Source of the DNA: a virus
Lineage: Duplodnaviria; Caudoviricetes
IMG/VR virus record: IMGVR_UViG_3300032312_000346
Location: 1-49,335 of that record
Direction: 5' to 3' (one strand)
DNA length: 49,335 nt
In this document: one piece after another, positions 949 to 49,334 of the stretch
Layout: every line of letters starts with the position of its first letter
Numbering within the stretch: the first letter of the stretch is position 1
Translations under genes and position numbers: made by a program
The notes under the pieces: generated by a model
Databases searched by the model: none
Told to the model about the DNA's origin: nothing
The model's input: only the letters and a program-made list of their open reading frames with translations

Positions 949-949
949 T

Positions 950-2138: not shown

Positions 2139-2147
2139 GAGAATAAT

Positions 2148-3329
2148 ATGAGAGATGATGGATTGAATGCAGAGCAGTTGATTAGCAAAACTAAAGTTGC
2201 TATTATGAACGACAAAGATTGGCAATGGATGGCTGGTATTGTCATGATGGGTACGGTTAGCTTTGTTGATGGTAAGCACAAGGTACAGACAGCGGCTACC
2301 GATGGCTTGAATGAGGTGTACCATCGTGACTTTGTTGAGGGCTTGGTGCTATCAGAGCTTAAGTTTATCGTGCTACATGAGAACTTCCATAAGATGTTTA
2401 GACATCTGTTCATATGGCAGGATTTGTGGAAGGAGAACAAAGACCTAGCTAACATTGCATGTGACGCTGTGATTAACACGCAGTACTTGTACGGCAAGCC
2501 TGGCATATCATTTGTTGAGGGCGGTGTCTACATGCCCGAGTACGCCGATGCTAATGTGTGGAACGTCAAGGCTGTGTATGACGACCTTAAAAAGAATGGT
2601 AAAGCAAAACCTACAAGCGGGCATGACAGCCATGATTGGGAATCAGCTGAACAAGTAACCGAAGAAGATGCCAAGGACATCGAGGTACAGGTAGACAACG
2701 CGTTACGCCAAGCGTCATTGGCTAGCAGTATCGGTGCGAATATGCCACGTAGTATTACACAGATGCTTGTACCCGAGGTTGACTGGAAGTCATTACTTGC
2801 TGAGTTCTTTAAGAGTGCATGTAGTGGCAATGACAAGCAAACATGGCGTAGACCACACAAGACTTACGTAGCATATGATTTGTATATACCAGCGCCATAT
2901 AGCGAGAGCATTGGTCGTGTGTTGATTGCTGGTGATACATCGGGTTCTGTTGATGACCGTATGCTGTCCGTCATCATGGGGTATATGCAACAGTTAGTAG
3001 ACGAGACACAGCCAAGTGGTGTGGACATCGCATGGTGGGGTAGTAAGGTAGTAGGCGTAGATAGTTTTGAGCGCGGTGCTATGGATACACTGGCTAACGT
3101 GGTTAGACCTGTGGGCGGTGGTGGTACGACACCATCATGTATTACTAACTGGATGTATGAGGAGAAAAGAGATGACTACGTATGTGCTGTTGTCATTACC
3201 GATGGTGAATTTTATGGTGATTCTGTCGGGGATTGGGGTGATTTGCCTGTGCTTTGGCTTGTGGTCAATAACAGACCAGTGCCTAACATACCTGTCGGAC
3301 AGACTGTTCAAGTGAGGGATGTATCATAA
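2148..3329 (+). CDS. DUF2201-like HExxH metallopeptidase plus vWA domain protein
   Basis: TAATDG, LHENFH, NIACD; C-terminal MIDAS DTSGS, GGGGT, ITDG. Confidence 0.85.
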   Translation: MRDDGLNAEQLISKTKVAIMNDKDWQWMAGIVMMGTVSFVDGKHKVQTAATDGLNEVYHRDFVEGLVLSELKFIVLHENFHKMFRHLFIWQDLWKENKDLANIACDAVINTQYLYGKPGISFVEGGVYMPEYADANVWNVKAVYDDLKKNGKAKPTSGHDSHDWESAEQVTEEDAKDIEVQVDNALRQASLASSIGANMPRSITQMLVPEVDWKSLLAEFFKSACSGNDKQTWRRPHKTYVAYDLYIPAPYSESIGRVLIAGDTSGSVDDRMLSVIMGYMQQLVDETQPSGVDIAWWGSKVVGVDSFERGAMDTLANVVRPVGGGGTTPSCITNWMYEEKRDDYVCAVVITDGEFYGDSVGDWGDLPVLWLVVNNRPVPNIPVGQTVQVRDVS

Positions 3330-3442
3330 TGAAGGAACGAGTGATGAATGATATTGTAACGGTAGTGATAGCGGCTGTAACTGGGGCGCTAATGTTTGCT
3401 ATGGCGTATGGCATAGCGCAGTTGGTAGCACCTTATATTTAA
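3329..3442 (+). CDS. small membrane protein (37 aa)
   Basis: Hand translated; TAATG coupling; single hydrophobic segment. Confidence 0.5.
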   Translation: MKERVMNDIVTVVIAAVTGALMFAMAYGIAQLVAPYI

Positions 3443-3451
3443 AGGAGAGAG

Positions 3452-3652
3452 ATGATGTTTAATTATATTAGAAAAGCAATTAGTATTTATGGGCATGAGC
3501 TAACGTATATAGACTTGTATGGGATAAAGGTTGACCCTAACCCTAATCGTGCGAGACGAGTGCAGGCAGTGATTGATAGTATGGGTGATAAGTATTTGTT
3601 AGCTAAACCAGTGGAGAGATTAAATGGTACCGTTTCACGAGATAAAAAGTAA
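3452..3652 (+). CDS. hypothetical protein
   Basis: AAGGAG RBS; in operon direction. Confidence 0.65.
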   Translation: MMFNYIRKAISIYGHELTYIDLYGIKVDPNPNRARRVQAVIDSMGDKYLLAKPVERLNGTVSRDKK

Positions 3653-4112
3653 GTCTGTTATAACGCAAGCTGTTATACATACAGCAATGCACCCCGAAGC
3701 ACAATGGCAAAAGTATTTTAACTTTGATGCGACGCGCATTCCTAATGAGGTACTGGCTTATGACCCTGTGCTTGCTGACATCGGCAGTCGACATCCTTTG
3801 ATGGGTGGGGTTGTGATGCTACCGCCGAATACGTTTTATAACTGGCATACCGATACACGTAGGGGTGTAAGTATTAACATGGTGTTGAATCCTTATGATG
3901 GTGTTAGCCATTGTGTGTTTACCCCTGATAAAGATGTTGCAGTAGGTGAGTTTATTGAGTTACAATACCAACCCGACACGTATTATCTGTTTAATACACA
4001 GGTTAATCATATGGTACTTAACTTTGACAAGCCTAGGTTATTACTGACCGTTGAGTTCGGTGAGGATAAAGATGCATTAAGTTATGATGATTTATTATTG
4101 GAAATATTATGA
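3624..4112 (+). CDS. cupin / 2OG-Fe(II) oxygenase-like protein
   Basis: WHTD (HxD), distal FNTQVNH and PRLLL motifs of a double-stranded beta-helix oxygenase. Confidence 0.6.
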   Translation: MVPFHEIKSKSVITQAVIHTAMHPEAQWQKYFNFDATRIPNEVLAYDPVLADIGSRHPLMGGVVMLPPNTFYNWHTDTRRGVSINMVLNPYDGVSHCVFTPDKDVAVGEFIELQYQPDTYYLFNTQVNHMVLNFDKPRLLLTVEFGEDKDALSYDDLLLEIL

Positions 4113-4531
4113 GCGTAAAAGACAGACAATCAATTGAAGTAGAAGCAAACCAAGAAGCCGCGTACCTATACATCAAAGAACGTGCTGATGTAACAGGTAA
4201 AGAATGTGTTGAAGCATTAGAGTTCTTTGAGAAGGGTAAGAAGTACTTGCGGTGGTTAACGACACACGGACACCTTAGATGCCATAAGAAAGTAATTGAT
4301 GGTAAAAAGCAATGTGTTTACAACGCCGCGCTACCGTATGTAAGACGTGTCCACGAGACACCAGTTGAACCAGTTGAAGTTTCTACACCGCAACAGATAC
4401 TGATAAAGAATGCTACTACAACCTACAGGTTGTTAGACAAGCCTAGACCACCTGCGCACAAGTCAGAACGCCCACAGCGCAGAACGCAAGTAAGTATAAG
4501 CAGTGGGCTAACAATGTTTGATAGTTATTAA
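4109..4531 (+). CDS. hypothetical protein, possible winged-helix N-terminus
   Basis: ATGA overlap; 140 aa. Confidence 0.6.
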   Translation: MSVKDRQSIEVEANQEAAYLYIKERADVTGKECVEALEFFEKGKKYLRWLTTHGHLRCHKKVIDGKKQCVYNAALPYVRRVHETPVEPVEVSTPQQILIKNATTTYRLLDKPRPPAHKSERPQRRTQVSISSGLTMFDSY

Positions 4532-4545
4532 TAACGGAGATAAAA

Positions 4546-4791
4546 ATGAGTGACGGAATGACGGATATGTTTTATGAAGAAGAGAATGCATTGACCAAGC
4601 AGGTGGGTGGCAATCACTACACCGATATGGTAGTTCAGCCTGTAGAGTTTATTGTGGCTAACAATCTTGGGTTCTTGGAAGGAAACATAATTAAATATGT
4701 TTGTAGGCATCAATCTAAACAAGGTGCAGAAGATATCAAAAAAGCAATACATTACTGCGAATTGTTATTACATACTAAATACGGTGACTGA
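4546..4791 (+). CDS. DUF3310 (SaV / T7 gp1.7-like) protein
   Basis: VGGNHY...F.EGNIIKYVCR..K.G.EDI.KA..Y signature. Confidence 0.85.
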   Translation: MSDGMTDMFYEEENALTKQVGGNHYTDMVVQPVEFIVANNLGFLEGNIIKYVCRHQSKQGAEDIKKAIHYCELLLHTKYGD

Positions 4792-4792
4792 T

Positions 4793-5308
4793 ATGAAAAG
4801 ATGCGGTGGTTGTAAAGTGTACAAAGAAGTAACTGAATTTTATAAGAGCAAACACACAAAAGATGGGCTAAATCACTGTTGTAAAGTTTGTTCGTATCAG
4901 CGAAAACTAAAGTCATTGAGTATAGGTGACAGATTAGAAAGGAAATCAGCACAATATAAAGAATGGTATCAAGCTAATCGAGAGGTTCTTTTACAGAAAA
5001 AAAGAGAGAAACGTAAAGACCCCATCGAAAAAGAAAAGAATAAGCAACATGGTATAAATAGACGTGCTCGAATGGGAGAAGAAAAGTACGCAGAATGGCG
5101 TAAACAATTAAGAGTAAAGTATCGAGATAATATAAAAGCGTATAACAAGATGCGAATGGATAAATTTTTTGATGCGGAAGTTATCGCAGAGATTAGAAGT
5201 AATGCTAAGTATACTAAACTATCAAAGGAACAGATACCTAAAGAGATGATTGATGTTTATAGAATGATTAGATTTATAAATAGGAAAGTTAAACATGAAA
5301 CCGTGTAA
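4793..5308 (+). CDS. basic CxxC...CxxC zinc-finger protein, paralog 1
   Basis: Likely start ATG 4793 (MKRCGGC...CKVC); Lys/Arg-rich helix; no HNH motif seen. Confidence 0.65.
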   Translation: MKRCGGCKVYKEVTEFYKSKHTKDGLNHCCKVCSYQRKLKSLSIGDRLERKSAQYKEWYQANREVLLQKKREKRKDPIEKEKNKQHGINRRARMGEEKYAEWRKQLRVKYRDNIKAYNKMRMDKFFDAEVIAEIRSNAKYTKLSKEQIPKEMIDVYRMIRFINRKVKHETV

Positions 5309-5879
5309 GAAGTGTGGAGAAACTAAAGCGTTTGATATGTTTAGTTTTTCAGGGTATAAAGACAAGCTACGTTCTTGGTGCAAAGAATGTTACAGCGTTT
5401 ATGGGTACGAGTACAGAAAGAAAAACGCGGATAAACTTAAAGAATATTATCGCCAATTATGTAGTACCGAAGAATATAAACTCAAAAATAGAGTAAAAGT
5501 AAAACAATGGAAAGCAGCTAATCCCGATAAAGTAAATGCAGGGCATGCTAAATACAGGGAAAAAAACAAAGACGCTATCAATTTAAGGCACAGGGAAAGA
5601 AGCAGTCGGTTATTTGCTGAGAACCCAAATTATTATAAAGAAAGAAACAAGAAACAGGAGCAATCTAATCCTAATTATTATTCAGAATATAAGAAAAAGT
5701 ATGACTCGTGGCATAAGCAAAATATATCTGACCAGTATATACGATTTATTTTTAACAAACTCATACCGAAAGGAGCAAAACTTACTAACATACCACAAGC
5801 ACTAATAGAAGCAAAACGATTACAAATTTTAATTAAACGGAGAGTGGAAAATGAAAAATGTAACAACACTACGCAATGA
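5295..5879 (+). CDS. basic CxxC...CxxC zinc-finger protein, paralog 2
   Basis: MKPCKKC...WCKEC; same architecture and C-terminal motif as upstream ORF. Confidence 0.7.
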   Translation: MKPCKKCGETKAFDMFSFSGYKDKLRSWCKECYSVYGYEYRKKNADKLKEYYRQLCSTEEYKLKNRVKVKQWKAANPDKVNAGHAKYREKNKDAINLRHRERSSRLFAENPNYYKERNKKQEQSNPNYYSEYKKKYDSWHKQNISDQYIRFIFNKLIPKGAKLTNIPQALIEAKRLQILIKRRVENEKCNNTTQ

Positions 5880-6045
5880 ATTAGCAGATGTATTTGACCA
5901 ACTTATGACAGGTCAGATTAAACCTAAAGAAGCAGGTGAGCTTGCCAACGTAGCAGGTAAGATGATTAACAGCGCGAAGGTTCAGCTTGAGTACTACGCC
6001 TTGCGTAAAGAAACACCTACGATTGATTTTCTAAAGGGCGAATAA
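5851..6045 (+). CDS. conserved small phage protein (INSAKV motif)
   Basis: GGAG RBS; LRNEL...A.K.INSAKVQL pattern. Confidence 0.7.
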   Translation: MKNVTTLRNELADVFDQLMTGQIKPKEAGELANVAGKMINSAKVQLEYYALRKETPTIDFLKGE

Positions 6046-6046
6046 G

Positions 6047-6181
6047 GTGTGGGTACTTCTCGACGATGAAGGCGAAGCCGTTAGGTATTTTAATTATGCT
6101 CACGAAGGTGCAGTTGAAATCGTCGAGAAGAAATTAACGATGGACGAAATGTTTGAACAACTAGGAGAAGCATTATTGTGA
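6047..6181 (+). CDS. small hypothetical protein (44 aa)
   Basis: Hand translated from GTG; fills the gap and overlaps next start (GTGA). Confidence 0.5.
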   Translation: MWVLLDDEGEAVRYFNYAHEGAVEIVEKKLTMDEMFEQLGEALL

Positions 6182-6396
6182 AAACTATAATACACGTTAA
6201 CCAACACGTGGTCAAAGCTAACGCAAAAACAGGGGAAAGAAACCCTGTACTAACTGTAAAGACGTACAAGACCAATACTTATGCAAACAAAGTAGAGATT
6301 AAGGGTGATAGTATAATTGTATATAGTCCCGACAAACCACTAAGTTGTGGTGCTAAAGTATGGATTGAAACTAACGGAGAGGTAACAACAGAATGA
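6178..6396 (+). CDS. conserved aquatic-phage hypothetical protein
   Basis: IHVNQH...PVLTVK...KPLSCGAKVWIET pattern; GGAG RBS. Confidence 0.7.
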   Translation: MKTIIHVNQHVVKANAKTGERNPVLTVKTYKTNTYANKVEIKGDSIIVYSPDKPLSCGAKVWIETNGEVTTE

Positions 6397-6566
6397 CAGA
6401 AGAACAAATTGAAACAGCATTAACAGCTATGCACAAGGGGCTAATCAATATGCAGGCAAGGCTTGATGACCACGAGAAGGTACTTGAGAAGCTGATGTTA
6501 GTAATGCAGGACTTAACCGCAGGGCAAGTGCCTAATGGATTCAGACAACCAAAGAAGGAGCATTAA
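6393..6566 (+). CDS. small coiled-coil protein (57 aa)
   Basis: Hand translated; GGAGAGG RBS; ATGA overlap. Confidence 0.6.
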   Translation: MTEEQIETALTAMHKGLINMQARLDDHEKVLEKLMLVMQDLTAGQVPNGFRQPKKEH

Positions 6567-6743
6567 ATGAAAGTCAAACGAACATTACCTAAGTGGGTAT
6601 GGTGGACTAAAGGTGAGTGTGTGGTTGAAGTGCTTAGGACAGGGCACTACCCAACGTCTATCATAGGTAAGTTACCTAATGACAAAGAAACAGAGATAGA
6701 CATTGATGAACTTGACTTGCATGTTAAAGGGGTAGAGGTATGA
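6567..6743 (+). CDS. small hypothetical protein (58 aa)
   Basis: Hand translated; AAGGAG RBS; abuts both neighbours. Confidence 0.6.
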   Translation: MKVKRTLPKWVWWTKGECVVEVLRTGHYPTSIIGKLPNDKETEIDIDELDLHVKGVEV

Positions 6744-6970
6744 CTTGGAATTATCGAGTTGTTAGATTTACAGATGAAGATGAATACTATGAAATCAAAG
6801 AAGTATTCTACGATGCCGACAATAAACCTGTGGGTTACAGCGATGCTATGTGCGGTAGTGATACGTACGAAGGGCTGTTTAAGTGTATGAGTTTGATGCA
6901 ATCAGCTCATGCTAAACCTGTATTAAACGAGGAAGAAATTAATGGCAATCACTCCCGAAAAGAAAGTTAA
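6740..6970 (+). CDS. conserved phage hypothetical protein
   Basis: MTWNYRVV...YEIKEVFYD pattern. Confidence 0.7.
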   Translation: MTWNYRVVRFTDEDEYYEIKEVFYDADNKPVGYSDAMCGSDTYEGLFKCMSLMQSAHAKPVLNEEEINGNHSRKES

Positions 6971-7238
6971 AAATGAAGTTACGAAAATTCTTAAAGAATA
7001 CAACGCATACTATTTTTTTCCTGCAACTGGTGGCTACGGGCGTAGTGGTGTCCCTGACATTGTTGCTTGTCTACGCGGCTATTTCATTGGTATAGAATGT
7101 AAGGCTGGTAGCAACACAACCACCGCACTGCAAAACCGCGAGTTAGCTAGCATTGAGTTAGCAGGTGGACGTGCTATAATTATAAACGAATCAAACATTA
7201 ACGACGTTAGAAAGGTACTAGATGCAATTAGTAATTGA
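6942..7238 (+). CDS. VRR-NUC domain nuclease / Holliday junction resolvase-like
   Basis: TPEKKVK, GVPDI, IECKAG, T.LQ motifs. Confidence 0.85.
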   Translation: MAITPEKKVKNEVTKILKEYNAYYFFPATGGYGRSGVPDIVACLRGYFIGIECKAGSNTTTALQNRELASIELAGGRAIIINESNINDVRKVLDAISN

Positions 7239-7335
7239 ATATATACTTTGTTATAGCACTGCATTCGGCTTAGGCTTAATCGCAGGAGTAGGGATAGTTT
7301 ATTTTATTCAAAAGGAACTGTATGGCGAGTCATGA
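7222..7335 (+). CDS. small membrane protein (37 aa)
   Basis: Hand translated; AAGG upstream; hydrophobic segment. Confidence 0.4.
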   Translation: MQLVIEYILCYSTAFGLGLIAGVGIVYFIQKELYGES

Positions 7336-7483
7336 CGAAACGTTATGTAACATATGTGGTAAGAGTTTGGCTGACACTAAAGAGTGTGCATGGACAAGTT
7401 GTCCACTCATTTGGAATGAACGCCGACTTGATACCATAGGGCAAAACGGTAACACAGGTGAACACTATGAGGAAGAAAAGTAA
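7322..7483 (+). CDS. small Cys4 protein (53 aa)
   Basis: Hand translated MASHDETLCNICG...ECAWTSCP...IGQNGNTGEHYEEEK; AAGGA RBS; TAATG coupling. Confidence 0.6.
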   Translation: MASHDETLCNICGKSLADTKECAWTSCPLIWNERRLDTIGQNGNTGEHYEEEK

Positions 7484-7680
7484 TGGCAGATGACGCAGAT
7501 TTGGCTCAAATTAATTCAGAGCTAGACGAAATACTTCGTCGCAAGTATAATAAAAAACCGACGCTTGAAGCAGAGGCAACAGGTGAATGCTTGAATTGTT
7601 TTGAGCCGATAGCAGAAGCAGGTAAGCGCTGGTGTGACATTCACTGCCATCACGACTGGGATTTACGAAGGAGGAGATAG
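7483..7680 (+). CDS. TraR/DksA-like C4 zinc-finger protein
   Basis: N-terminal MADDADLA (DxxDxA) plus CLNC...WCDIHC. Confidence 0.7.
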   Translation: MADDADLAQINSELDEILRRKYNKKPTLEAEATGECLNCFEPIAEAGKRWCDIHCHHDWDLRRRR

Positions 7681-7905
7681 ATGTATAGTAAAGTAGTGTA
7701 TAGAATTAGTGACCGTAAATTCAAAGTTGAAAGCACTGATTCTATAGGGAACATGAGTAAGCCTACTTATTACAAGAGTTTAAATGCAATGCCAACAGAT
7801 GTAGGCGATAAAGTAAAACAATTAATGTGGACAAGCCCTGACGACCAAACCAATACAGAAGATGTTGGAGTTCGAATAGGTGATAATATATTTTGGATAA
7901 TATAA
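7681..7905 (+). CDS. hypothetical protein
   Basis: AGGAGG RBS. Confidence 0.6.
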   Translation: MYSKVVYRISDRKFKVESTDSIGNMSKPTYYKSLNAMPTDVGDKVKQLMWTSPDDQTNTEDVGVRIGDNIFWII

Positions 7906-7915
7906 CGAGAGCAGA

Positions 7916-9775
7916 ATGCAACTAATAACATTAGATTTTGAAACCTATTACGACAAAGACTTTAGCCTTTCAAAGATAACAACAGAAGAATACGTACGTA
8001 GTAAGCAGTTCGAAGTGATTGGTGTCGCTACTAAAGTAGATGATGGTCCGATTGTGTGGGCGACAGGTACGTATAAAGAACTTAAGGAGCACTTAGATTC
8101 CCTACCGTGGGAGAACCACCTTATGCTTGCACAGAACACAGCGTTCGATGCGGCTATCCTCAATTGGCGATTCGGAATTAAACCTGCAGGCTACTTAGAT
8201 ACCATGAGTATGGCAATGGCTATTCACGGGCTGGAGCAATCAGTGAGCCTAGCTAACCTAGCAGTGATTTACGGTGAAGAGGCTAAAGGTGAGCAGGTCA
8301 AGCAGTACCTCGGGTACCATCGCAAGGACTTCTCCCCACTAGAGCTTGAGGACTACGGTAGCTACTGTAAACATGATGTAGAAATATGTTATAACGTGTT
8401 TAAAAAGATGTTACCTAACTTTCCTAAGAGTGAGTTACGCGTGGTTGATTTGACTATCCGTATGTTTGCCGAGCCTATCCTAGAGCTAGACGAGAAGTTA
8501 TTAGTGGATGACTTGATGAAGATTCGTGCAGACAAACGTGGCTCACTACTGACCATGATGAACTTGCTTGGGGTTAAAGATGAGGACACACTCAAGAAAC
8601 AATTAATGAGTAATGATAAGTTTGCAGAGTTACTCAAGTCGCGTGGTGTTGAACCGCCTACTAAGATTAGTGACAAGACAGGTAAAGAAGCATGGGCATT
8701 TGCTAAGACAGACGAGGAGTTTACTGACCTCATGGACAGCGAAGACCCTATGATTGCTACCCTAGTAGCAACGCGCTTGGCTAACAAGTCGACCATCGGT
8801 GAGACAAGAACAGAATCATATGCAGACATTGCCTCACGTGGTACCTATCCGTTCTCATTGAAATACTCAGGTGCTATGATTACCCACCGCTGGTCAGGCT
8901 TTGATACTAACCCACAGAACTTACCACGTGGTTCGACATTGCGTAAAGCGATTATGGCACCCGATGGACATCAGCTAGTAGTAGCTGACTTGAGTAACAT
9001 TGAGTTACGCTTGGGTATGTGGCTTGCTGGTCAACACGATGCTATACAACAGATTAACGAAGGCATGGACTTGTACCGTGTGTTTGCATCTGAGGCGTTT
9101 AACTTGGACTACAAGAAGATTGGTAAAGATAGTAACGAACGGTTCATTTCAAAGGTGTGTTGCTTATCATTAATCTATGGTACAGGCGCATTGAAGCTAC
9201 GTGAGACTATCCGTATACAAAGCAAGGGTAAGACAACCGTATCAGCTAATGAAGCAGAACGCTTAAAGAATTTGTATCGTGATAAGAATACCAGCGTAGC
9301 TGATGCGTGGCGCGAAGGTGGGCAGGTACTGGAATGGATTAGGAACAATGAGTCGCATACTGTGTATGACTTCTTACCTGTGCTTGGTTCGGCTGGGATT
9401 ATTAAACCTAATGGCTTGTCGTTACCATACCCTAACTTGACTGAGAGTGTAGGAGTCAAAGGGAACGAATGGCATTATGATGTGCGCCGTGGTCGTGCAA
9501 CGATGAAAGATAAAGTGTATGGCTCAAAGGTTTTCCAACGTGTAACACAAAGCCTAGCACGTGACATCATGGCAGAGCATACTAGCAACATTAACAAAAA
9601 ATACTGGGTTGCAGGATTGGTACATGATGAGGTAATATGTGTAGTGCCTGATGGTGAAGTAGAAGAAGCAAAGACATTCATTACAAAAATGATGCGTACA
9701 CCACCAACATGGGCTAAAGATTTACCGTTAGATTGTGAAGTAGGTTCGGGGAAAAGATATGGCAACGCTAAGTAA
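7916..9775 (+). CDS. polA: DNA polymerase family A with 3'-5' exonuclease
   Basis: ExoI LDFET, ExoII NTAFD, ExoIII YCKHD; motif A ADLSNIELR, motif B RFISKVCCLSLIYG, motif C VHDE. Confidence 0.95.
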   Translation: MQLITLDFETYYDKDFSLSKITTEEYVRSKQFEVIGVATKVDDGPIVWATGTYKELKEHLDSLPWENHLMLAQNTAFDAAILNWRFGIKPAGYLDTMSMAMAIHGLEQSVSLANLAVIYGEEAKGEQVKQYLGYHRKDFSPLELEDYGSYCKHDVEICYNVFKKMLPNFPKSELRVVDLTIRMFAEPILELDEKLLVDDLMKIRADKRGSLLTMMNLLGVKDEDTLKKQLMSNDKFAELLKSRGVEPPTKISDKTGKEAWAFAKTDEEFTDLMDSEDPMIATLVATRLANKSTIGETRTESYADIASRGTYPFSLKYSGAMITHRWSGFDTNPQNLPRGSTLRKAIMAPDGHQLVVADLSNIELRLGMWLAGQHDAIQQINEGMDLYRVFASEAFNLDYKKIGKDSNERFISKVCCLSLIYGTGALKLRETIRIQSKGKTTVSANEAERLKNLYRDKNTSVADAWREGGQVLEWIRNNESHTVYDFLPVLGSAGIIKPNGLSLPYPNLTESVGVKGNEWHYDVRRGRATMKDKVYGSKVFQRVTQSLARDIMAEHTSNINKKYWVAGLVHDEVICVVPDGEVEEAKTFITKMMRTPPTWAKDLPLDCEVGSGKRYGNAK

Positions 9776-18099: not shown

Positions 18100-18166
18100 T
18101 GACAGTCGTTGCATTCTGTCTCTCTCCGTTTTACCCACTTGCCCCAGCTTTTGCTGGGGCTTTTTT
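18100..18166 (+). ncRNA. candidate small RNA with anti-Shine-Dalgarno linker
   Basis: Promoter upstream; 5' hairpin GACAG/CTGTC; pyrimidine linker TCTCTCCGTTTT; terminator. Confidence 0.45.
18141..18166 (+). terminator. Rho-independent terminator at arm convergence
   Basis: GCCCCAGC-TTTT-GCTGGGGC-TTTTTT. Confidence 0.9.
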
Positions 18167-21100
18167 ATTCTACTTCGCTACGTACTCGCCTAATCTGCAT
18201 ATCGCGCAAACCAGCTTCTACAGAAGCCATCAGTTCATTAACTAATTGGCGTTTTTCATCAGGTGTTAAATCAGGACTGCTCATAATTAAATTACGTTGA
18301 TGACTCACTTTGTTCATCTCAGTATGCAGAGATTCAACTGCATCACGAGCGGCAAGTCTAGCTTGAATTTCAGGTTGGTTAATATACTCTTCTAATTTAG
18401 CCTCGTCACCTTCAGCTTGTATAGCTGTAGCTGTTTTATAGGCTTGTTCTGTCAGTTCACGAAGCGCGTAGTATTCTTCAGCGTATCTACCACCCACAGT
18501 TTTTTGTTGGAATGAGCCAATCACAGGGTACTTATCAGCCGCCATCTTGTTACTACCCATCACCACATCAGCAAACTGAAGTAACGCACCTGCAGAAGTA
18601 CCACCAATGGCATTAAATATATAATCAATTTTCATTGGTGAGAAGTTAAGTACATCCCCTACGTTTTTAGCGAACTCACTAGTGCTAGCTGTGTATTGTT
18701 GGAATGGAGCAAGACCTTTTAAGCGCTCACTAACGATAGGCATATCTGAGAAGAAGCTATAATTTGTTGCTAGTTCTACAGCAGGTAGTACACCATAAAC
18801 TGCAGATGGTGGAGTAAACCCAGCGGCGGCGGCTTCTAAGATGCCTTGACGTAAACGTGTAAGTGACTCAGGGTTCTCAGTACCACTTTGCAGTATGTAA
18901 TCCGTAATGCGCTCAGGTATTACTTTACCTAAGAAGCCAACGTCAGTAGGTACAGGTATTAATCCACCACCAGGAATTACAAAGTTGCGGTCAGTAATAA
19001 AACCTTTTTGTTCTTCGTAGTCGTCATCACCTGAACGTGACATTGTGTAAAGAGTAACTAACCCAGCATACATAGCCATATTACCCCAGTATGCAGCTGC
19101 GGCAGCTTTACGCTGTTTCATAGAGTTACCACGACCAACCATACCTTTGTAGTTAACATCCATACCTTGCAAGTACGCACCCATAAACGGAATAGTTTGT
19201 TTTAGTGTGTTTACAAACTGACTTGTACCTGATTTTTGGAAGTTAATAATCTCACGAGCGCGAGTAGCGGCAAGTGTTTTGTCACCAGTTTCTTCCATAG
19301 TCTGACGATAGATACCTAAACGCACTGCTAGGTCGGCACTGTAAGCTAATTTCTGTAGGTAGTTATATCCCTTAGTAGCAACAAATTTATCAGAGATAGT
19401 CTTAGGCGCTTCACCCATACCAAACTGACTAGCGCGACCACGTGTAGAGTCATAGGCTGTATAGTCTGCAGCTCCAACAACACCTTGGTTCATTAACTCT
19501 TGAATGTCTGCATTGGTACCACGGAAGGCTTCGCCTGTAAGGAATGACTTGTATATCTTACCCATCATAGCCCAAGGTTTATCTACACCTGATGTAATAA
19601 ATGCGCGTTGTGAGTCCATTACTACTTGGCGTAACGGGAATGCAGGGAATAGCACGATACCAGCACGGAGTCTACCTAGCCATGTACCTATTGTTTTCAT
19701 AACCCCACTATTCATACCACTTACTGTTTGGAATGCGGCTAAGTCATATGGGTTATCAACAGTCCAGTATACTGGTTTACCAGCTTCATAAACCATAACA
19801 ACGTGAGCAGGGTTACCTGTTGTTGGGCGCATACTAGAGCGCGTTGCTGTACCCATAGTGGACATCGTATTGAGCGCACTATTAGCAGTATGGTTAGCCA
19901 CACCTGAACGAACACACCAGCCAATCATTTGTGCCATGTTCTCAAGCATGTCGTTAACTTCTTCAGTACCACCAACTAATGCTTTCATCTGACGTAAGTC
20001 AACCATACGACCTGTATTACCTAGTCCAGGGATTTGAGATTGGTAGTCTTTCAAGCGTAGCCACGGAGCGTATGAATCATCCGCTAAGAACTGCGTTGCT
20101 TTTGCATCTGAAAGAAAACCTGCTTGTTTTAAGAACTTAACCATCTCATTCTTAGCACCGATAAACTCAGTCTGCATTGCGCGTAGTTCAGGGTATTGAT
20201 TAAATGCCGCCATCGCTGCATTGATTTGCGCTTGTGTAGGTACTATACGCGGGTCTTTTTGCCAGTTCTCAGGCCATTGGTCACGAGGTACATTAGCGAT
20301 AATAGACTTGGCGCGGTAGTGATAGAATACACCAGTTATTAAAGCACGAGCCTCTTCAACGCCAAGTTGTTCACCTAATCTTTTTGCGTGACGGAATACA
20401 CCGTCTACACTATGATTTGCGTCTTTTGCTCGCATAGAACCGTTAGGTAGGATTTCCATACCACCTCTGGTAAACACAGCATTGATGAAGTTGTTTACGT
20501 TATTAGCCGCACTCAATAACAAGTCAGCACGTATTTTCCCATTCACATTATAGAAGGCACCGCCATTAGCGTCTTGAATTGCAGCTGATAGATTTGCCGC
20601 TTTGTCAATTACTTTAGTACGGAATTTGTTAGCCATTTCCTCAATCATGCCAAACGCACCACTAGGGTTGTTCACCATAGTAGTAGCAATATTACCTAGT
20701 ACTTGAGTAGTAGTTGTTGGTTGTGTTGGTACGGATTGAGCAAGAGTACCTGACATACCAGCGATAAATTGCCGTGCCTGAGCCTGTGCTACTGGATTTA
20801 TCTGTGCAGCATTGCCTCTACCTGGGACGGTGTTTCCACGTTGCGTAGTAGGTCCACTATTGGCTTGTATATTGCCATTCCTTCCCTGTCCCCCTCCTGA
20901 CGGTACAGTTCGTGCCGTGTTTCCGCCGCCGCGATTAACTCCTCTAGCTGATGCGGACCCTTTTGCGTAATCCTCAAGAGACTTTGCAGTGTTTTTTGTT
21001 GTTGATTTTCCATATGCTTCCCTCATTGCAGTAAAAGTAGATTCATGACGCACTAATGTGTCCATTATTGCATCTCTAAAATAGTCAAGCATTCCAACAT

Positions 21101-24100
21101 CAGCAAGATATTGTTCTACTTTAATCATTTGCCCATTGTGTCCAACACCATGACTCATATCTCCTTGATGTGCTATCTCATGTATCATAGTGTTAAGGAG
21201 ATTTTGCCTTATGCCAAATAACGACTTTGCTCCCCAGTCATAGAATGGGTTTAATAACACAGCCTTGTAAGGTACTTTAATATGTACCCCACCGTACCCT
21301 TTATCAACTGAGATACCCCCAAAGAATAAGTTATCTGGTGATAATTGTTCATACCCCCACATCTTACTCTTAGCTAATTCTTCTTTCATATCGACCATTA
21401 GGGTACCAAGCTCGGCAAAGAATGCTTGTGGGTCTCCGAACGCTTTACCTATATCAATAAAATCCACATTAGTGTTGTTATGGAATATAGGAAGTTTAGG
21501 GTCTTGCTCCATTTTAAGCATGAATTTATCGCTACCAGGAGCTTCGTTTTCTGCTTCAAATGTACTTTCCTTATTTTTTTCTGATTTCTTTTCAGCGTTT
21601 TCTTTGTCTACAATAACACGCCCTTTATCATCAGAGACGATGTTATCTTTAATAACAATAGATTTAGGCATTGGGGGCAGTTCAAATTTAGTTTCACCTG
21701 CGCCACGTTGGTCAAATACTTTTTTAAGTTTTTTACTTACTTCAGCTACATCTTCTCCAGCTTCAATACGAGGCATTGATACAATACCTTTAAAGCTCTC
21801 TTGTAAATTTTTCGCTTCTTCACCGCGAGCAACCCTTCTAAGGAAGTTCTGCAGTGATTCCATATCCTCTTTTAAACGAGGTTTAAATCTTTCTCGGCTG
21901 TTTTCAAAAGGGTAGTCTGGGTGTTTTGCATCTACATTAGGTTTGATGTTAACAATAACATCAAAAGGAAGTCTTTCCCCCCTTGCCAGCTCGTAATATT
22001 CGTCAAACTGATATACACCACTGGATAATACTCGGTGCTTTGGTTTATCATTACGATTTACACCAAAATAAATATCCGCACTTCCCCACGAAAAGTTTGC
22101 CTTAGTAAGTAATGGCATCTCTTTAGTATCAAAATTAACGCCAACAGGTAGCACTTTGGTATCAGTATCGCCGTATCCTGTAAAAGATACAGTTACTTTT
22201 GTAGGGCCTATTAAAGGTTTAGTTAGCGGTTGAACATCAGTGCTATACGGGAAATAAATATACTTTTGCTCACCTGTGTTTGAGTCTGTGTAGTACTCAG
22301 GAATTTTTACTTCTACAGTTGTACCATGCGCATTTTTAGGCGCTGGAGTTTTAACAAGTTTAAATGCAGATTTAGCTATTTCTAGGGATGTTGTGTCGAC
22401 AACAGTACGTACACCATCACGAACCGTATCTAATTTAAGACGTTCAGCACCCATCATAAAACCCATTTTAGCTAATCCAAGGCCACCGCTTCGCTCACTT
22501 GGGTCAAGGTCCGATTTATCGGAACCAGCTACCGTAAAAAACGCATTCTTAACAATATCTGTTGTCATTCCTCGAGCATTGTCAGTAAATTTAATCGTGC
22601 GGTCATTACTATTAATATCAATCTTAATATCACCCTCTTTAATTAACCCAACTTTAACCGCGGCTTTTACCGCATCAAATGAGTTTTGAAGCAACTCTTT
22701 AATTGATACATCAGCAAGACTAGCAGCGTACATATTTGAACCCAGTAATTGGATAATCCCTGCCATATCAGCATTTAATTGCCCTGCTTCTGTTCCAAAC
22801 TTGCTTTCACTATTTTTAGATGCCGATGCATTTATTCCAGAAGCTGGACGACTAACGAGTTTAAGTTGTGTTTTTTGAACTCTGTGATATGCTTTAGGGT
22901 TAGTTGCAGTGTCAGGACGGAATTTAACGTAGTCCCCATTAAATCCTACAACAGTACCTGGTAAGTTTCCGTAACGAACACTGTCACCAATTAAGAAACC
23001 ATCAACAGCATCTTGCGCGTATTGTTTTACAACTGGCTCTAATATAGTTTTAGATTCAGAAGCATCAGGTGCTTTAGTGGTAGTTGCTTCTTCAGTTGAT
23101 AGTTTATCTAACTGTTTTTTTATTTTAGCTACTTTTTTAGCTGCGGTATTTTTCTTTTCTTGTGTAGCAGTTGGGTCATCTTCTAATTCTTGTTGATTTG
23201 CAACAGCTTCATCTATTTTTCTAGATAATAATTGAACTGCCATCTCTGGACTACCTGTAGCTATTCTAGTAGATACATTTGCTTTAGTTGTATTGGCTAT
23301 TTCAATACTTTCAATATCATCAGCTGTATCTTGAGTTAAGTATCCGTCTTTATGTGCTTGTTTTACTTTATCTTTACCAATCTTAGATAGCTTACCAAAT
23401 GGGATGTCACTAAAGTAACTCCATGTAGTTGCAACAGGTTCTTTTTTTAGTTCAGCGGCGGCATCTTTCGCAACGCTTTTTGGTACTGGTGCTAATGCAC
23501 TTGGTTGAGTCCTTTTGCTTGGTCTAGTTGTTCTAACGTTTGGTTGAGGTACTCCACTATCACTAACCACTCCTGTTCCGTCAGGTTCTGCAACTTCTTC
23601 AGGCGTGGTTTCTTCTGGCTGAATAGGCACTCCCACGCTCGGCTCAGTTCCTGGTTGCTCAGTAGTAGCTGGTACTCCGTCCTCTGGAAAACCAAAGAGG
23701 TCTGGTTGTGAAGGTTCTGCTGTCGGTTGGGTTTGCGGGGCATTAGGTACTCCAAATAAGTCAGGCTGAACAGCGTTAGGGTTATAGTGAGGGAATGCTT
23801 CTAGAATACGGTTAGCATAAACACCTGTGGGACTATTACCCGATGCCAATACTGTAAGTAAGTTATATGTAGTTGGGTCAGCTAGGTTTGCATTTTTTAA
23901 CGCTTTGTACACATTTCTATTACTTGGAGTAATACCAAATGTTTTTAATAGCTCAGGAGTCAATATTCCTTCAGCAGGAGCTACAGGTTCTACCCCATAA
24001 ACACCTTGTTGAATTGCTTGACGAGTCTTGTTTCTTTCCTTGATAGATAAATCAGGGAAGTATAGTTTCATATTGCCAGCAAGTTCAGCTCGACCTTCAG

Positions 24101-25313
24101 GAGTTTTATTTAATTCTGCAATTTGCGCTGGAAGTGACTGTAAACGACCCGTCTCTACGCTCGCCAAAGCTTCAGGGCTAGGCTTACCCCTTGGCGTAAA
24201 TAGTTCGCCCTGCGTAGGTACCTCTACGCCAGGAATCGACGTTTCTGGCTCTGAAATTGGTGTTTCTTCCTGTGTCGGAGGGGTAAAACCCTCTGGTGGC
24301 ATCGGTCCCGCAGGTGTTGGAGCTTCTTCTTCCGTAAATAACGGTAGTTGGTCCATTACCCCAGTAGCTTCGCGCTGTGCTTGAGCTTGTGCTCGTTGAG
24401 CAGCTTCTGCTTGTACCGCTTCGTCTTGTGCAACTACTCTTTTAGCTTCACCACGTTCTTGGAATTTACCAATCGCACCTAGTGGACCAATCAATGCAGT
24501 TTGATATGCAATGTCTGCGTATTCTTTTCTAGCCTCATCATCGGTCAGCGATAAGCCAGCTTGGTAACGCTCAAGCATTTGTTGTGCAACTTCGGTAGGA
24601 ACTTCGGCTGCAACGCCTTTGGCGGTACCTTCTGCTAATGTACGTTTTAATGATTTAGCAACAACAGCATCCGCTTCAGCACGACCTAACGTCTTAACAG
24701 GAAGACCCATCAATTTACTAAATAATAACTTGTCAGTAAATACATCTAAAGCAGCTTGAGGAACAGCGGCACTGTAAGCAGCGCCAGCGTCAATTGGTGT
24801 ACCTTCTTGTGCTTGTCGTTCTAAGTTTGTACCTGATTGTTGAACGAATGACGGAAGGAATGCACCGCCTAAACCACCAACTACAGTACCAACAGGACCA
24901 AATGCTGAACCTGCCATAGCGCCAAGTCGTGCAGTGCCTAGAGCAGCTGCTAATTGCGGAGCTTGTTGTGCGATAGCACTTGGGATTTGACTGATGACTT
25001 CACGAGCAGCTGGGAATAAACCTTTTTCATCATATACTTGCCCGATTTTATCTAGGCTAGCACCAGGCCTTTCAGTGATAGCTTTTTGACGTTCTTCACC
25101 AGCTTTAGCGGCTTCTTCGGCATTGAATATACCTGATACACCAGTCCCCAATGAACTAATCATACGTTTGGTTCCACCTACAAAGGCTTCACCAACACCA
25201 GCTGTTTCAATTTTAGGAGTGTTAAACTTGTTGTATTTAGCTAGTAATTCTTTCTGCGTAATGTTTTCAGGAACATCAGTTATGATTGTTCCATCAGGCA
25301 TTTGTACATTCAT
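18165..25313 (-). CDS. giant internal virion/ejection polyvalent protein (GHKL ATPase, HExxH peptidase, LPD38-like C-terminus)
   Basis: 2382 aa at the end of the structural arm; ELLQNSFDA/DNARGM/GGLGLA/GTTV; HEIAH; C-terminal INF...PF..A..QG, ELATN.SFF...PIV, SP.KIDY. Confidence 0.75.
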   Translation of the reverse strand: MNVQMPDGTIITDVPENITQKELLAKYNKFNTPKIETAGVGEAFVGGTKRMISSLGTGVSGIFNAEEAAKAGEERQKAITERPGASLDKIGQVYDEKGLFPAAREVISQIPSAIAQQAPQLAAALGTARLGAMAGSAFGPVGTVVGGLGGAFLPSFVQQSGTNLERQAQEGTPIDAGAAYSAAVPQAALDVFTDKLLFSKLMGLPVKTLGRAEADAVVAKSLKRTLAEGTAKGVAAEVPTEVAQQMLERYQAGLSLTDDEARKEYADIAYQTALIGPLGAIGKFQERGEAKRVVAQDEAVQAEAAQRAQAQAQREATGVMDQLPLFTEEEAPTPAGPMPPEGFTPPTQEETPISEPETSIPGVEVPTQGELFTPRGKPSPEALASVETGRLQSLPAQIAELNKTPEGRAELAGNMKLYFPDLSIKERNKTRQAIQQGVYGVEPVAPAEGILTPELLKTFGITPSNRNVYKALKNANLADPTTYNLLTVLASGNSPTGVYANRILEAFPHYNPNAVQPDLFGVPNAPQTQPTAEPSQPDLFGFPEDGVPATTEQPGTEPSVGVPIQPEETTPEEVAEPDGTGVVSDSGVPQPNVRTTRPSKRTQPSALAPVPKSVAKDAAAELKKEPVATTWSYFSDIPFGKLSKIGKDKVKQAHKDGYLTQDTADDIESIEIANTTKANVSTRIATGSPEMAVQLLSRKIDEAVANQQELEDDPTATQEKKNTAAKKVAKIKKQLDKLSTEEATTTKAPDASESKTILEPVVKQYAQDAVDGFLIGDSVRYGNLPGTVVGFNGDYVKFRPDTATNPKAYHRVQKTQLKLVSRPASGINASASKNSESKFGTEAGQLNADMAGIIQLLGSNMYAASLADVSIKELLQNSFDAVKAAVKVGLIKEGDIKIDINSNDRTIKFTDNARGMTTDIVKNAFFTVAGSDKSDLDPSERSGGLGLAKMGFMMGAERLKLDTVRDGVRTVVDTTSLEIAKSAFKLVKTPAPKNAHGTTVEVKIPEYYTDSNTGEQKYIYFPYSTDVQPLTKPLIGPTKVTVSFTGYGDTDTKVLPVGVNFDTKEMPLLTKANFSWGSADIYFGVNRNDKPKHRVLSSGVYQFDEYYELARGERLPFDVIVNIKPNVDAKHPDYPFENSRERFKPRLKEDMESLQNFLRRVARGEEAKNLQESFKGIVSMPRIEAGEDVAEVSKKLKKVFDQRGAGETKFELPPMPKSIVIKDNIVSDDKGRVIVDKENAEKKSEKNKESTFEAENEAPGSDKFMLKMEQDPKLPIFHNNTNVDFIDIGKAFGDPQAFFAELGTLMVDMKEELAKSKMWGYEQLSPDNLFFGGISVDKGYGGVHIKVPYKAVLLNPFYDWGAKSLFGIRQNLLNTMIHEIAHQGDMSHGVGHNGQMIKVEQYLADVGMLDYFRDAIMDTLVRHESTFTAMREAYGKSTTKNTAKSLEDYAKGSASARGVNRGGGNTARTVPSGGGQGRNGNIQANSGPTTQRGNTVPGRGNAAQINPVAQAQARQFIAGMSGTLAQSVPTQPTTTTQVLGNIATTMVNNPSGAFGMIEEMANKFRTKVIDKAANLSAAIQDANGGAFYNVNGKIRADLLLSAANNVNNFINAVFTRGGMEILPNGSMRAKDANHSVDGVFRHAKRLGEQLGVEEARALITGVFYHYRAKSIIANVPRDQWPENWQKDPRIVPTQAQINAAMAAFNQYPELRAMQTEFIGAKNEMVKFLKQAGFLSDAKATQFLADDSYAPWLRLKDYQSQIPGLGNTGRMVDLRQMKALVGGTEEVNDMLENMAQMIGWCVRSGVANHTANSALNTMSTMGTATRSSMRPTTGNPAHVVMVYEAGKPVYWTVDNPYDLAAFQTVSGMNSGVMKTIGTWLGRLRAGIVLFPAFPLRQVVMDSQRAFITSGVDKPWAMMGKIYKSFLTGEAFRGTNADIQELMNQGVVGAADYTAYDSTRGRASQFGMGEAPKTISDKFVATKGYNYLQKLAYSADLAVRLGIYRQTMEETGDKTLAATRAREIINFQKSGTSQFVNTLKQTIPFMGAYLQGMDVNYKGMVGRGNSMKQRKAAAAAYWGNMAMYAGLVTLYTMSRSGDDDYEEQKGFITDRNFVIPGGGLIPVPTDVGFLGKVIPERITDYILQSGTENPESLTRLRQGILEAAAAGFTPPSAVYGVLPAVELATNYSFFSDMPIVSERLKGLAPFQQYTASTSEFAKNVGDVLNFSPMKIDYIFNAIGGTSAGALLQFADVVMGSNKMAADKYPVIGSFQQKTVGGRYAEEYYALRELTEQAYKTATAIQAEGDEAKLEEYINQPEIQARLAARDAVESLHTEMNKVSHQRNLIMSSPDLTPDEKRQLVNELMASVEAGLRDMQIRRVRSEVE

Positions 25314-28080: not shown

Positions 28081-28493
28081 ATTAATTTCTCCACTACTGT
28101 TTCAGTAGCAATAAGTCCCACTTTTTGTCTATATAACCTAACCCGTGCTTCAGAAGCATACGCTCTAATTTTAGTAGCTCCTTGAGATTTAGCCCATGCA
28201 ATTACTTGATTAAATGATTCTTCATCTACAATACCTCTACCACCTACATTAGTCATAGTTGCAACCCTATGATTAGGATGTGTACTTACTTGAATCGTTG
28301 CTGCCCCTATAACTTTTTCATTTTCTACTGCTACCATTAATGTCTGTGAACCACTAACCAACTGCAATTTTAATTGGTCAAGTGTACAATCTATGTCACC
28401 TAACGCTACATCAACCGAAGACTTAATAAATGGTTCTACTGTATTCCATACTTGATGCACATGATTTGGACCTACTGTCTGTATTAAAATCAT
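28077..28493 (-). CDS. GNAT-fold-like virion assembly protein (P22 gp14-like position)
   Basis: 138 aa between ejection genes; VIGAA, VGG, WAKSQGA..I, RLY pattern. Confidence 0.5.
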   Translation of the reverse strand: MILIQTVGPNHVHQVWNTVEPFIKSSVDVALGDIDCTLDQLKLQLVSGSQTLMVAVENEKVIGAATIQVSTHPNHRVATMTNVGGRGIVDEESFNQVIAWAKSQGATKIRAYASEARVRLYRQKVGLIATETVVEKLI

Positions 28494-48087: not shown

Positions 48088-48103
48088 TATATTTTCCTTT
48101 GTG

Positions 48104-48176
48104 TTATAGCACTTCCCAACCCAATTTCTATAATATCTGCTAGGTCAGTTTGGGTCAGTAAAAAATAATCCTAGAT
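48104..48176 (-). ncRNA. structured double-pseudoknot leader RNA, possibly Mu-gpT-DE-like
   Basis: Three interleaved pairings CTAGG/CCTAG, GACCCAA/TTGGGTT, TTATAG/CTATAA; downstream of the capsid gene. Confidence 0.5.
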
Positions 48177-48182
48177 GTTGCT

Positions 48183-48211
48183 TTTATACTATGTTATCGT
48201 TCCCGTGTCAA
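48183..48211 (-). promoter_or_regulatory. strong sigma70-like promoter
   Basis: TTGACA-17 nt-TATAAA on the minus strand. Confidence 0.75.
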
Positions 48212-48229
48212 ATGTTTATTGAGAGCATA

Positions 48230-48595
48230 ATGCCTTTTAAAGACCCTGTTAAAAAGAAAGAAAAACAAAAAGAATATTCAAGAAAATATTATGAAGCTAA
48301 CAAGGAAAAGATTACCGCTAGCACAGGTAAAATGAGAAGAAAAAGAAGGGCTGAGTTTACAGAGTTTAAGTCTACTTTATGCTGCACTAAATGCCCTGAA
48401 AATCACCCCGCTGCACTAGACTTTCACCATGTAGTACCCAATCCAGCTAATAAAAAGATTACAGAGCTTATTAGAGCAGGGCGCTTTGCATTTGCAATGG
48501 AAGAAATTAAGAACAAGTGTATTGTGTTATGCAGTAATTGCCACCGTAAACACCACTACGAAGAAGATAAAAAGAAAAGGGGCCTAAGCCCCTAG
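48230..48595 (+). CDS. HNH endonuclease, antisense to the structural arm
   Basis: CTKC, LDFHH, C..LCSNCHRKHH; likely start ATG 48230 (MPFKDP). Confidence 0.85.
   Translation: MPFKDPVKKKEKQKEYSRKYYEANKEKITASTGKMRRKRRAEFTEFKSTLCCTKCPENHPAALDFHHVVPNPANKKITELIRAGRFAFAMEEIKNKCIVLCSNCHRKHHYEEDKKKRGLSP
48569..48593 (-). terminator. Rho-independent terminator of pqqA
   Basis: AGGGGC-TTAG-GCCCCT then TTTCTTTTT on the minus strand, 4 nt after the pqqA stop. Confidence 0.75.
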
Positions 48596-48597
48596 TA

Positions 48598-48669
48598 CTA
48601 CTTGTTCATTACGTACATTGTCACTTCAAAGCCAAAACGCATTTCAGTAGCTGCTGGTGTTGTCCACAT
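48598..48669 (-). CDS. pqqA: pyrroloquinoline quinone precursor peptide PqqA (23 aa)
   Basis: Hand translated MWTTPAATEMRFGFEVTMYVMNK; W..P.....R.GFEVTxY with the E-x3-Y core; AAAGGAAA RBS. Confidence 0.95.
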   Translation of the reverse strand: MWTTPAATEMRFGFEVTMYVMNK

Positions 48670-48858
48670 GATAATTTCCTTTAAGTGTAATATTTTCAAT
48701 ACAAAAAAGTTTGTCTGTAATAGAAGGTTTATTTTTACAAGCAAAACTAACTTAATAGTGTAGATATGTATACATTTTTAAACTTTATATACACGTCAGC
48801 TACTATGTGTATACATTCTGCGCTTTTCTATACAAGTCGCAATACGTAAAATCATGAA

Positions 48859-48932
48859 TTACCGAGCGGTAATTGAATAGTAAAAAACATAGAAAAAGGG
48901 GACCGAAGTCCCCTTAGTGTTACCGAGCGGTA
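48859..48932. repeat. two copies of palindromic TTACCGAGCGGTA
   Basis: Exact 13-mer at 48859-48871 and 48920-48932. Confidence 0.75.
48893..48915 (-). terminator. Rho-independent terminator after the major capsid gene
   Basis: AAGGGGAC-TTCG-GTCCCCTT then T run on the minus strand. Confidence 0.85.
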
Positions 48933-49334
48933 TTAAGCGCCTGGAGAACCGTACATACCTAATGGGTCTGAGAAACCGAATGAATAACGCTCACGAGCTT
49001 TATAACGAACGTTACCTGTATCGAAGTCACCATCCATTGAGTTTTGCAATGGTGTACGTACAAAGTGTTTCATACCGTTAGGAACATCAGTAGTCAAGAA
49101 CCAAGCATTGGTGTCTGTCAAGAAGTGGTTAATTGTGTAACCTTCTGGAATAGAACCGTTGTTTTCAAGAGCATTGATGTCATTGTCAGTTGTACCTACG
49201 CGAAGCTTAGTTTCCAACAAACGTGTTGCAACGAATTGCAATGCTGGTGGAACGATAAGTTTCTTAGGTTTAGATGCAATCAATAGACCACGTTCATCAG
49301 TCCAAGCTGCGATTTGAATAACAGCATTTTCCAA
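48933..49334 (-). CDS. major capsid protein, C-terminal part (Mu gpT-like)
   Basis: DERG...P.KLIVPP.L, NHFLTD..AWF, DFDTGNVRYKARERYSFG.SDP.G.YGSPGA; 5' truncated. Confidence 0.88.
   Translation of the reverse strand: MENAVIQIAAWTDERGLLIASKPKKLIVPPALQFVATRLLETKLRVGTTDNDINALENNGSIPEGYTINHFLTDTNAWFLTTDVPNGMKHFVRTPLQNSMDGDFDTGNVRYKARERYSFGFSDPLGMYGSPGA

Follow-up and report, generated by a model that had tools for sequence, protein, structure and literature searches.

A stand-alone pqqA gene was identified next to the capsid gene in the window, i.e., the whole 49,335-bp stretch of DNA analysed, which is an entire record but a partial genome ending inside the capsid gene. Judged by its sequence, the locus is an intact, host-identical pqqA with the attributes of an auxiliary metabolic gene (AMG), and is not an operon. 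The reading preferred here, held with a probability of roughly 0.65, is that the unit is under host transcriptional control and that host enzymes would turn its peptide into PQQ, by which methanol oxidation would be kept going in the infected cell. Unannotated pqqA genes were also recognized by sequence in nine cultured Methylophilaceae/OM43 phage records of unrelated types; this, together with the spread among uncultured phages, the constancy of the PQQ-forming residues and the shifted promoter box described below, is what the present work adds.

Genomic context of pqqA

Since near-complete relatives are 59–68 kb in size, part of the window phage's genome is probably missing. Genes assigned by PHROGs and Pfam included those for a family A polymerase, an SNF2 helicase, SU10-type adaptors, an endolysin and the cut capsid gene, whose product shared 62% identity with that of HTVC023P and 58% with that of CRP-902 (56% to 67% with the capsids of HTVC023P, CRP-901/902, DSL-LC04 and Pag-Yong1 taken together). 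The host-like pqqA lay between viral genes, with the capsid gene upstream and the HNH gene and virion module downstream (Table 1). The hairpin behind the capsid gene would, if it acts as a terminator, isolate pqqA from the capsid transcript. Within the virion module, nt 18165–25313 (minus strand) encoded a large polyvalent protein of 2382 aa with HATPase_c and a C-terminal LPD38.

Table 1 Features of the pqqA region in the window
Feature	Position (nt)	Strand	Remarks
HNH endonuclease gene converging on pqqA	48191..48595, probable start 48230	+	PHROG 3106, E 3e-20
Hairpin with T-run, resembling an intrinsic terminator, at the end of the pqqA unit	48568..48593	-	Hairpin plus T-run 48593-48578; overlap with the HNH gene at its end
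pqqA, 23 aa	48598..48669	-	ATG at 48669, TAG 48600-48598; 72 nt, 23 codons; Glu15-x3-Tyr19
Ribosome-binding site AAAGGAAA	48675..48682	-	5 nt 5' of the pqqA ATG
Predicted hairpin at transcript 5' end	48788..48813	-	Folding prediction
-10-like hexamer, predicted promoter	48815..48820	-	22 bp behind the box, the commonest phage spacing
15-bp box, 6-3-6 palindrome, host-pqqA type	48843..48857	-	14.2 bits; matrix trained on host upstream regions only
Terminator-like hairpin 3' of capsid gene	48896..48915	-	Putative function
Major capsid gene, 3' part, cut by window end	48933..49334	-	PHROG 371 major head protein; HTVC023P/CRP-901-like family

No PqqB-G or PQQ dehydrogenase was detected among the 62 window ORFs compared with PHROGs or the 57 + 5 ORFs compared with Pfam. 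An earlier note, made from the letters alone, had described the gene as stand-alone in a viral context and pqqB-E as absent; the former was supported, no pqq partner gene being present in the window, and the latter holds within this 49-kb partial genome. Linkage of pqqB-E to pqqA was found neither in the window nor among the 268 neighbour-cluster representatives described below. Searches of the window with Rfam and ARAGORN gave no match. The HNH gene was rejected as a partner of pqqA, being patchy in occurrence (present in the related loci L244 and L031, absent from L243, L028 and L316).

The PqqA peptide

The 72-nt minus-strand ORF with a ribosome-binding site and its own terminator was confirmed as first described, and so was the peptide. 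Its assignment to PqqA was upheld by both curated models, the peptide scoring 40.3 bits with PF08042 (cut-off 21.1; all 19 positions covered) and 38.8 bits with TIGR02107 (cut-off 20; all 21 positions covered). It also had the Glu-x3-Tyr motif expected of a PqqA peptide of ~23–30 aa, at Glu15 and Tyr19, together with the ribosome site, and it matched nothing in PHROGs and no solved structure. The resemblance to Methylophilaceae PqqA suggested in the earlier note was borne out, since 78 of 130 host copies encode this very peptide, more than encode any other; it also occurs in phage P19250A, and named Methylophilaceae/Methylophilales made up 70 of the 80 genome matches listed. The host is likely a low-GC member of Methylophilaceae (Methylopumilus/Methylotenera type), as judged largely from pqqA itself. 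PqqE with PqqD cross-links the Glu and Tyr of PqqA (PMC9851590; reportedly also Barr 2016), and since the window peptide is the commonest host peptide, it is a likely substrate of these enzymes.

Gene order and capsid lineage

The arrangement in the window recurred elsewhere. An independent contig, L244, had the same order and orientation, with the capsid gene (93% nt identity) followed by pqqA (92%), the HNH gene and the next gene (80%); L031 shared the layout of the window, and in L243 and L028 the capsid gene was followed by pqqA without the HNH gene. Together with the presence of pqqA in cultured isolates, this makes a chimeric assembly of phage sequence and a host pqqA, a risk named in the earlier note, extremely unlikely, although about 240 nt between the capsid stop codon and the ribosome-binding site had little match in relatives. 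The support is one of gene order. At this level of comparison, the locus is judged not to be a chimera.

Among the best 80 capsid relatives, pqqA lay within 3 kb of the capsid gene in five, including the two closest. All 16 capsid-linked carriers (the window, those five, and ten found via pqqA) fell into one 24-row clade (100/98) of a 91-row capsid tree, and none of the 57 informative rows outside this clade had pqqA nearby. Locus GC was 0.38–0.44 in the clade (13 loci) versus 0.44–0.57 outside; this is compatible with a distinct host, but shared descent would give the same pattern. Whole-record checks gave a pqqA match in 3 of 23, one of them a clade member with pqqA elsewhere, and none in the clade members G003 (99% complete) and G001 (75% complete) or in three near-complete outsiders; the results for G003 and G001 indicate that pqqA is not essential, which counts against the AMG reading. 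A host link through genomes found no support: the capsid matched in 1 of 301 Methylophilaceae-family genomes, on a contig of the same phage family (55 kb) that had been binned there; it lies outside the clade and lacks pqqA, an absence that likewise counts against the AMG reading.

Several other features of the capsid region were observed. A 13-bp near-palindrome occurred twice in the window (nt 48920–48932 and 48859–48871), once on each side of the capsid terminator; none of the other loci compared contained it. The slot 3' of the capsid terminator contained differing endonuclease-like genes or small membrane protein genes in L287, L289, L297, L311, L067, L018 and L008, and from its contents it is considered a variable cargo site in the clade. 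A conserved hairpin-like leader preceded the gene after this slot (~nt 48090–48160, minus strand), with no Rfam match in the window; it was also present in L248, L257, L276, L306, L316, L035 and L059, in carriers and non-carriers alike. Directly 3' of pqqA, a conserved non-coding stretch of ~85 nt was shared by L028, L049, L110 and L111 and was not seen in the window.

Occurrence in cultured phages

A PqqA query against 50,697 phage records returned 12 matches, comprising nine Methylophilaceae/Methylophilales (OM43) isolates, one unassigned Manatee Spring phage and two Acinetobacter "phage" records. Peptide identity was 100% for P19250A (identical pqqA at nt 28085–28153 of record KX815270), 91% for MEP301 and Venkman, 83% for MEP401 and MEP402, and 73% for four Melnitz records. 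Acinetobacter PqqA as a second query retrieved the same 12 of 50,697 records; other gammaproteobacterial-type phage PqqA would therefore probably have shown, a coverage that stops short of divergent alphaproteobacterial types. Of the two Acinetobacter records, the one inspected, filed as phage MD-2021a (L328, CAKLQF020000010.1), proved to be bacterial DNA carrying a complete pqqABCDE operon, whose pqqA likewise lacks annotation.

In all six isolate records inspected, out of nine, the ORF and ribosome-binding site were intact and pqqA had no annotation, in line with the earlier suggestion that size-filtered annotation would miss the gene; the remaining three Melnitz records rest on tblastn. In Melnitz, a "hypothetical protein" was annotated on the strand opposite pqqA. 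In P19250A, the product of nt 1546–2202 (P19250A_0031; L322), annotated as a diguanylate cyclase/phosphodiesterase, matched a YqaJ-like exonuclease, with 50% over its length. Methylotroph-phage taxonomy comprised 18 distinct taxa, of which nine matched; HIM624-A, phiHIMB624-A, MEP431-434, Venkman EXVC038S, MG-MTP1 and RSA-MFP1 lie outside the isolate count, and no claim is made for every isolate.

The main texts on Melnitz (PMC9004378), MEP401/402 (PMC10580990) and MEP301 (PMC8024684) make no mention of pqqA, PQQ appearing in the first only as an additive of the H5P1 medium (1 nM), which could mask an effect of phage pqqA, and "pqq" does not occur in the accessible portions of the Venkman preprint and PMC13059738. 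No paper reporting pqqA in cultured methylotroph phages was found, subscription journals and supplements being outside the scope of the search.

Occurrence in uncultured phages

A core-pattern search of IMG/VR retrieved at least 119 stretches. A codon variant accounted for nine of these 119 and, searched alone, gave at least 120 stretches, which implies a floor of roughly 1,600 contigs if the scan order is unrelated to the variant. Among the matches listed, 80 loci with full flanks represented at least five unrelated phage types, with 28 of YqaJ/Sak type, 13 HTVC023P-like, 12 T4-like, 8 of portal-terminase type, 4 MEP301-like, 1 mixed and 14 without type. Since these 80 loci comprised 55 neighbour pairs, the place beside the capsid gene emphasized in the earlier note is correct as a position and has no special status. 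At least one neighbour was on the opposite strand in 48 of 70 loci, and the 268 representatives examined of the 486 neighbour clusters (short clusters and singletons under 110 aa left out) included neither a Pqq nor a dehydrogenase family.

A few of the IMG/VR matches may be host DNA, as suggested by the region upstream of pqqA in L089, which matched the host locus L150. In L030, a 72-kb IMG/VR contig, pqqA was accompanied within nt 1–8039 by a fragment encoding part of a formate dehydrogenase alpha subunit and by genes for an adenylate cyclase, a porin-like protein, a protein resembling RNA polymerase omega and a quinoprotein-associated SoxYZ-like carrier (TIGR04557 above cut-off), and two unknown genes 5' of pqqA were common to the capsid-linked locus L003; L030 would be either host DNA or a large phage.

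Predicted promoter and host box

The box upstream of pqqA was the second-best site in the whole window and is likely an activator site, as predicted by its match to host promoters. Of the regions upstream of pqqA, 106 of 117 from hosts and 64 of 118 from phages had a box above 11 bits (means after shuffling, 0.45 and 0.95, respectively), as against 0 of 110 host and 0 of 111 phage downstream controls; capsid loci lacking pqqA had a single such site in 382 kb. P19250A, MEP301, Venkman and Melnitz possessed the box, and MEP401 had no good one; the 54 of 118 phage copies below the 11-bit threshold count against regulation by the host.

The distance from the box to the -10 was 45–46 bp in 77 of 109 hosts, and in phages 20–23 bp in 54 of 94 and 45 bp in 13 of 94; the phage box is mostly shifted ~23 bp closer to the -10 than in hosts. 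The phage spacing places the box centre near -42, a usual position for an activator. A plain sigma-70 scan did not find the -10-like hexamer of the window (5 sites vs 6.6 expected). From box to ATG the window had 188 nt and relatives mostly 84–99, a difference in leader length of ~100 nt from most of them, and the whole predicted transcript folded no better than shuffles (z -0.14). A ribosome site was present in 120 of 120 phage copies, and a terminator in 56 of 115 (0 in shuffles) and in 110 of 123 host copies. Matches in RNA runs amounted to at most 0.10 of words, as contigs only, and a further run (X1), with 0.56 of the words, may be the source sample; no claim on habitat or expression rests on these figures.

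In three host genomes, the best intergenic box sites preceded the pqqA copies and a few accessory genes. Genes with the host box 80–106 bp upstream (L332, L339, L357 and L365) encoded a pentapeptide-repeat protein, a membrane protein and two YVTN beta-propellers, the last two having sub-threshold matches to TIGR03866; these accessory genes are possible members of a small PQQ regulon. That the box marks a general methanol-dehydrogenase regulon was rejected, since it exceeded 11 bits upstream of 0 of 7 PQQ-dehydrogenase genes (best 9.5). A loose box pattern was no commoner in the three host genomes (16, 11 and 15) than in controls (11, 14 and 14), and a second, weaker host-promoter box seen by eye scored above 0 in only 10 of 109 and is not claimed. 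No paper on the regulator of the pqqA box was found.

Persistence of the box across unrelated lineages, in a promoter-proximal position (22 bp vs 45 bp from the -10), would also be expected if the phage used the unit for regulation, with the promoter sensing host state or titrating the activator, or the peptide occupying PqqD/PqqE and damping host PQQ; read-through would then be possible in the 59 of 115 phage copies without a terminator within 170 nt. Such use is nevertheless considered quite unlikely, given that a decoy should tolerate or even favour loss of Glu or Tyr, which occurred in 0 of 119 copies, that the peptide equals the host substrate, and that the window unit is bounded by terminators on both sides.

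Selection on the peptide

Selection was assessed with a search pattern that left residues 15–23 free, and N-terminal free codons as well; the middle of the peptide stayed fixed in the pattern, so that decayed copies would escape it. Glu15, Thr17 and Tyr19 were invariant in 119 of 119 viral copies, the Tyr codon being TAC in 55 and TAT in 52 of 107 distinct genes. For codons 15–22 of these 107 genes, pS was 0.57 and pN 0.066 (pN/pS ~0.11), and the free N-terminal codons were more variable (pN 0.25). Both conservation by selection and a tie to one host group, as expected of an AMG, were observed, 9 of the 12 record matches being methylotroph isolates. Position 21 was Cys in 15 and Ala in 6 of the 119 viral copies, and these subtypes may point to other host groups.

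These data bear on the idea of a neutral passenger, a small multi-copy host gene that is repeatedly picked up, or whose likeness to the host copies is maintained by gene conversion, and that brings the phage no advantage. Hosts offer many copies as donors, the closest host copies show a difference of 1 nt in 69, and the gene is patchy within the capsid clade, all of which a passenger would explain; yet the strong excess of synonymous change, the failure to capture flanking host genes (none in the neighbour-cluster representatives) and the phage-specific promoter spacing make this very unlikely. No broken copy was found among the 119 read or the five reached from the capsid side, both being searches that favour intact copies.

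Proposed role

In the reading preferred here, the activator of the host pqqA promoter would bind the box by the -35, giving a ~240-nt transcript that ends at its own terminator and would be translated into the host-identical peptide. Host PqqD/PqqE would then cross-link its Glu and Tyr, an established reaction of the pathway (PMC9851590, available text), and later enzymes release PQQ, one peptide being used per cofactor. This PQQ might keep methanol dehydrogenase, the entry of energy and carbon in the host, supplied while host transcription declines. Since the pathway enzymes are reusable and the peptide is a consumable, 72 nt would be the cheapest part to carry. The dehydrogenase gene xoxF is the top OM43 transcript according to the accessible text of PMC5120137.

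Methylophilaceae genomes have 3–12 copies of pqqA versus one pqqB-G set, as stated in the part of Beck et al. 2014 (PMC4109929) at hand, and 3, 5 and 4 copies were counted in the three host genomes; hosts amplify pqqA alone, and stand-alone copies are a host habit too. Against a PQQ-supply role stand this multi-copy state and the limited PQQ gain from pqqABCDE overexpression in Methylovorus, where PqqB/PqqC are possibly rate-limiting (second-hand, from the available text of PMC9851590).

Extra PQQ could serve oxidative-stress protection, other quinoproteins, or release to neighbouring future hosts, with methanol flux not raised. The invariant Glu and Tyr fit such uses equally well, the box is common to pqqA and a few accessory genes and absent from dehydrogenase promoters, and PQQ import is described as widespread in the accessible text of PMC12124388. 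Restriction of pqqA to methylotroph phages among the 50,697 records argues in the other direction, as do its association with methanol dehydrogenase in Baikal viruses (PMC7678222, available text) and its place in L030 alongside the SoxYZ-like carrier and formate dehydrogenase genes, and these uses are rated rather unlikely. The preferred reading remains sustained methanol oxidation. Intact pqqA in cultured pairs (P19250A/IMCC19250; Venkman and Melnitz/H5P1; MEP301, MEP401/402) makes it testable at the bench.

A wider proposal is offered tentatively, with somewhat less than an even chance of being right: pqqA may be the signature AMG of Methylophilaceae phages, the methylotroph counterpart of cyanophage psbA, gained separately by most lineages, overlooked in every cultured isolate record on account of its 72 nt, and wired into the host pqqA regulon via an acquired activator site now placed beside the -35. 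If this is true, PQQ precursor supply would be the step limiting infection, and the 72-nt gene would be a marker linking viral contigs, in the thousands, to methylotrophs as hosts. Members of Methylophilaceae (Methylopumilus, OM43, Methylotenera) rank as main methanol consumers of lakes and coastal waters. A viral contribution to methanol oxidation had until now been proposed from metagenomic contigs, and pqqA offers a host marker for uncultured phages.

Comparison with known systems

Phage pqqA as such is already known, and taken by itself the locus contributes little more than a further phage family; the novelty left open in the earlier note is ruled out by PMC7678222 and PMC13188868, even as far as their accessible texts go. 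Coutinho et al. 2020 (PMC7678222) described PqqA and methanol dehydrogenase in a T4-like Lake Baikal virus, population VP_266. VP_266 and the window share a phage PqqA, a predicted Methylophilaceae host and a proposed boost of methanol oxidation, the function being a proposal in both. VP_266 is T4-like and has the dehydrogenase, whereas the window phage is HTVC023P-like and its 49 kb contain neither a dehydrogenase gene nor a further pqq gene; promoter, spread and selection are not described for the VP_266 pqqA in the available text. That text states that P19250A encodes none of its AMGs, and the identical pqqA in KX815270 corrects this published statement. In reservoir sediments, viral pqqA/pqqD/pqqE were listed as phosphorus-cycling AMGs (PMC13188868); as far as the accessible text goes, they were read as phosphate solubilisation, with no methylotroph link, and the metatranscriptome gene list names pqqD, not pqqA. 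The PqqA family is treated in host context only in the available part of PMC11118758.

Chromosomal pqqA of Methylophilaceae (PF08042, TIGR02107) has the same peptide, stand-alone form, ribosome-binding site, terminator and box as the window copy, which differs in being phage-borne; the box-to--10 spacing is shorter in most phage copies. With psbA of cyanophages, unrelated phages of one host group carry a fast-consumed part of the host energy machinery. There is no homology between the two genes, PqqA being a cofactor precursor whose expression and benefit are here only proposed, and the logic of carrying them would be alike.
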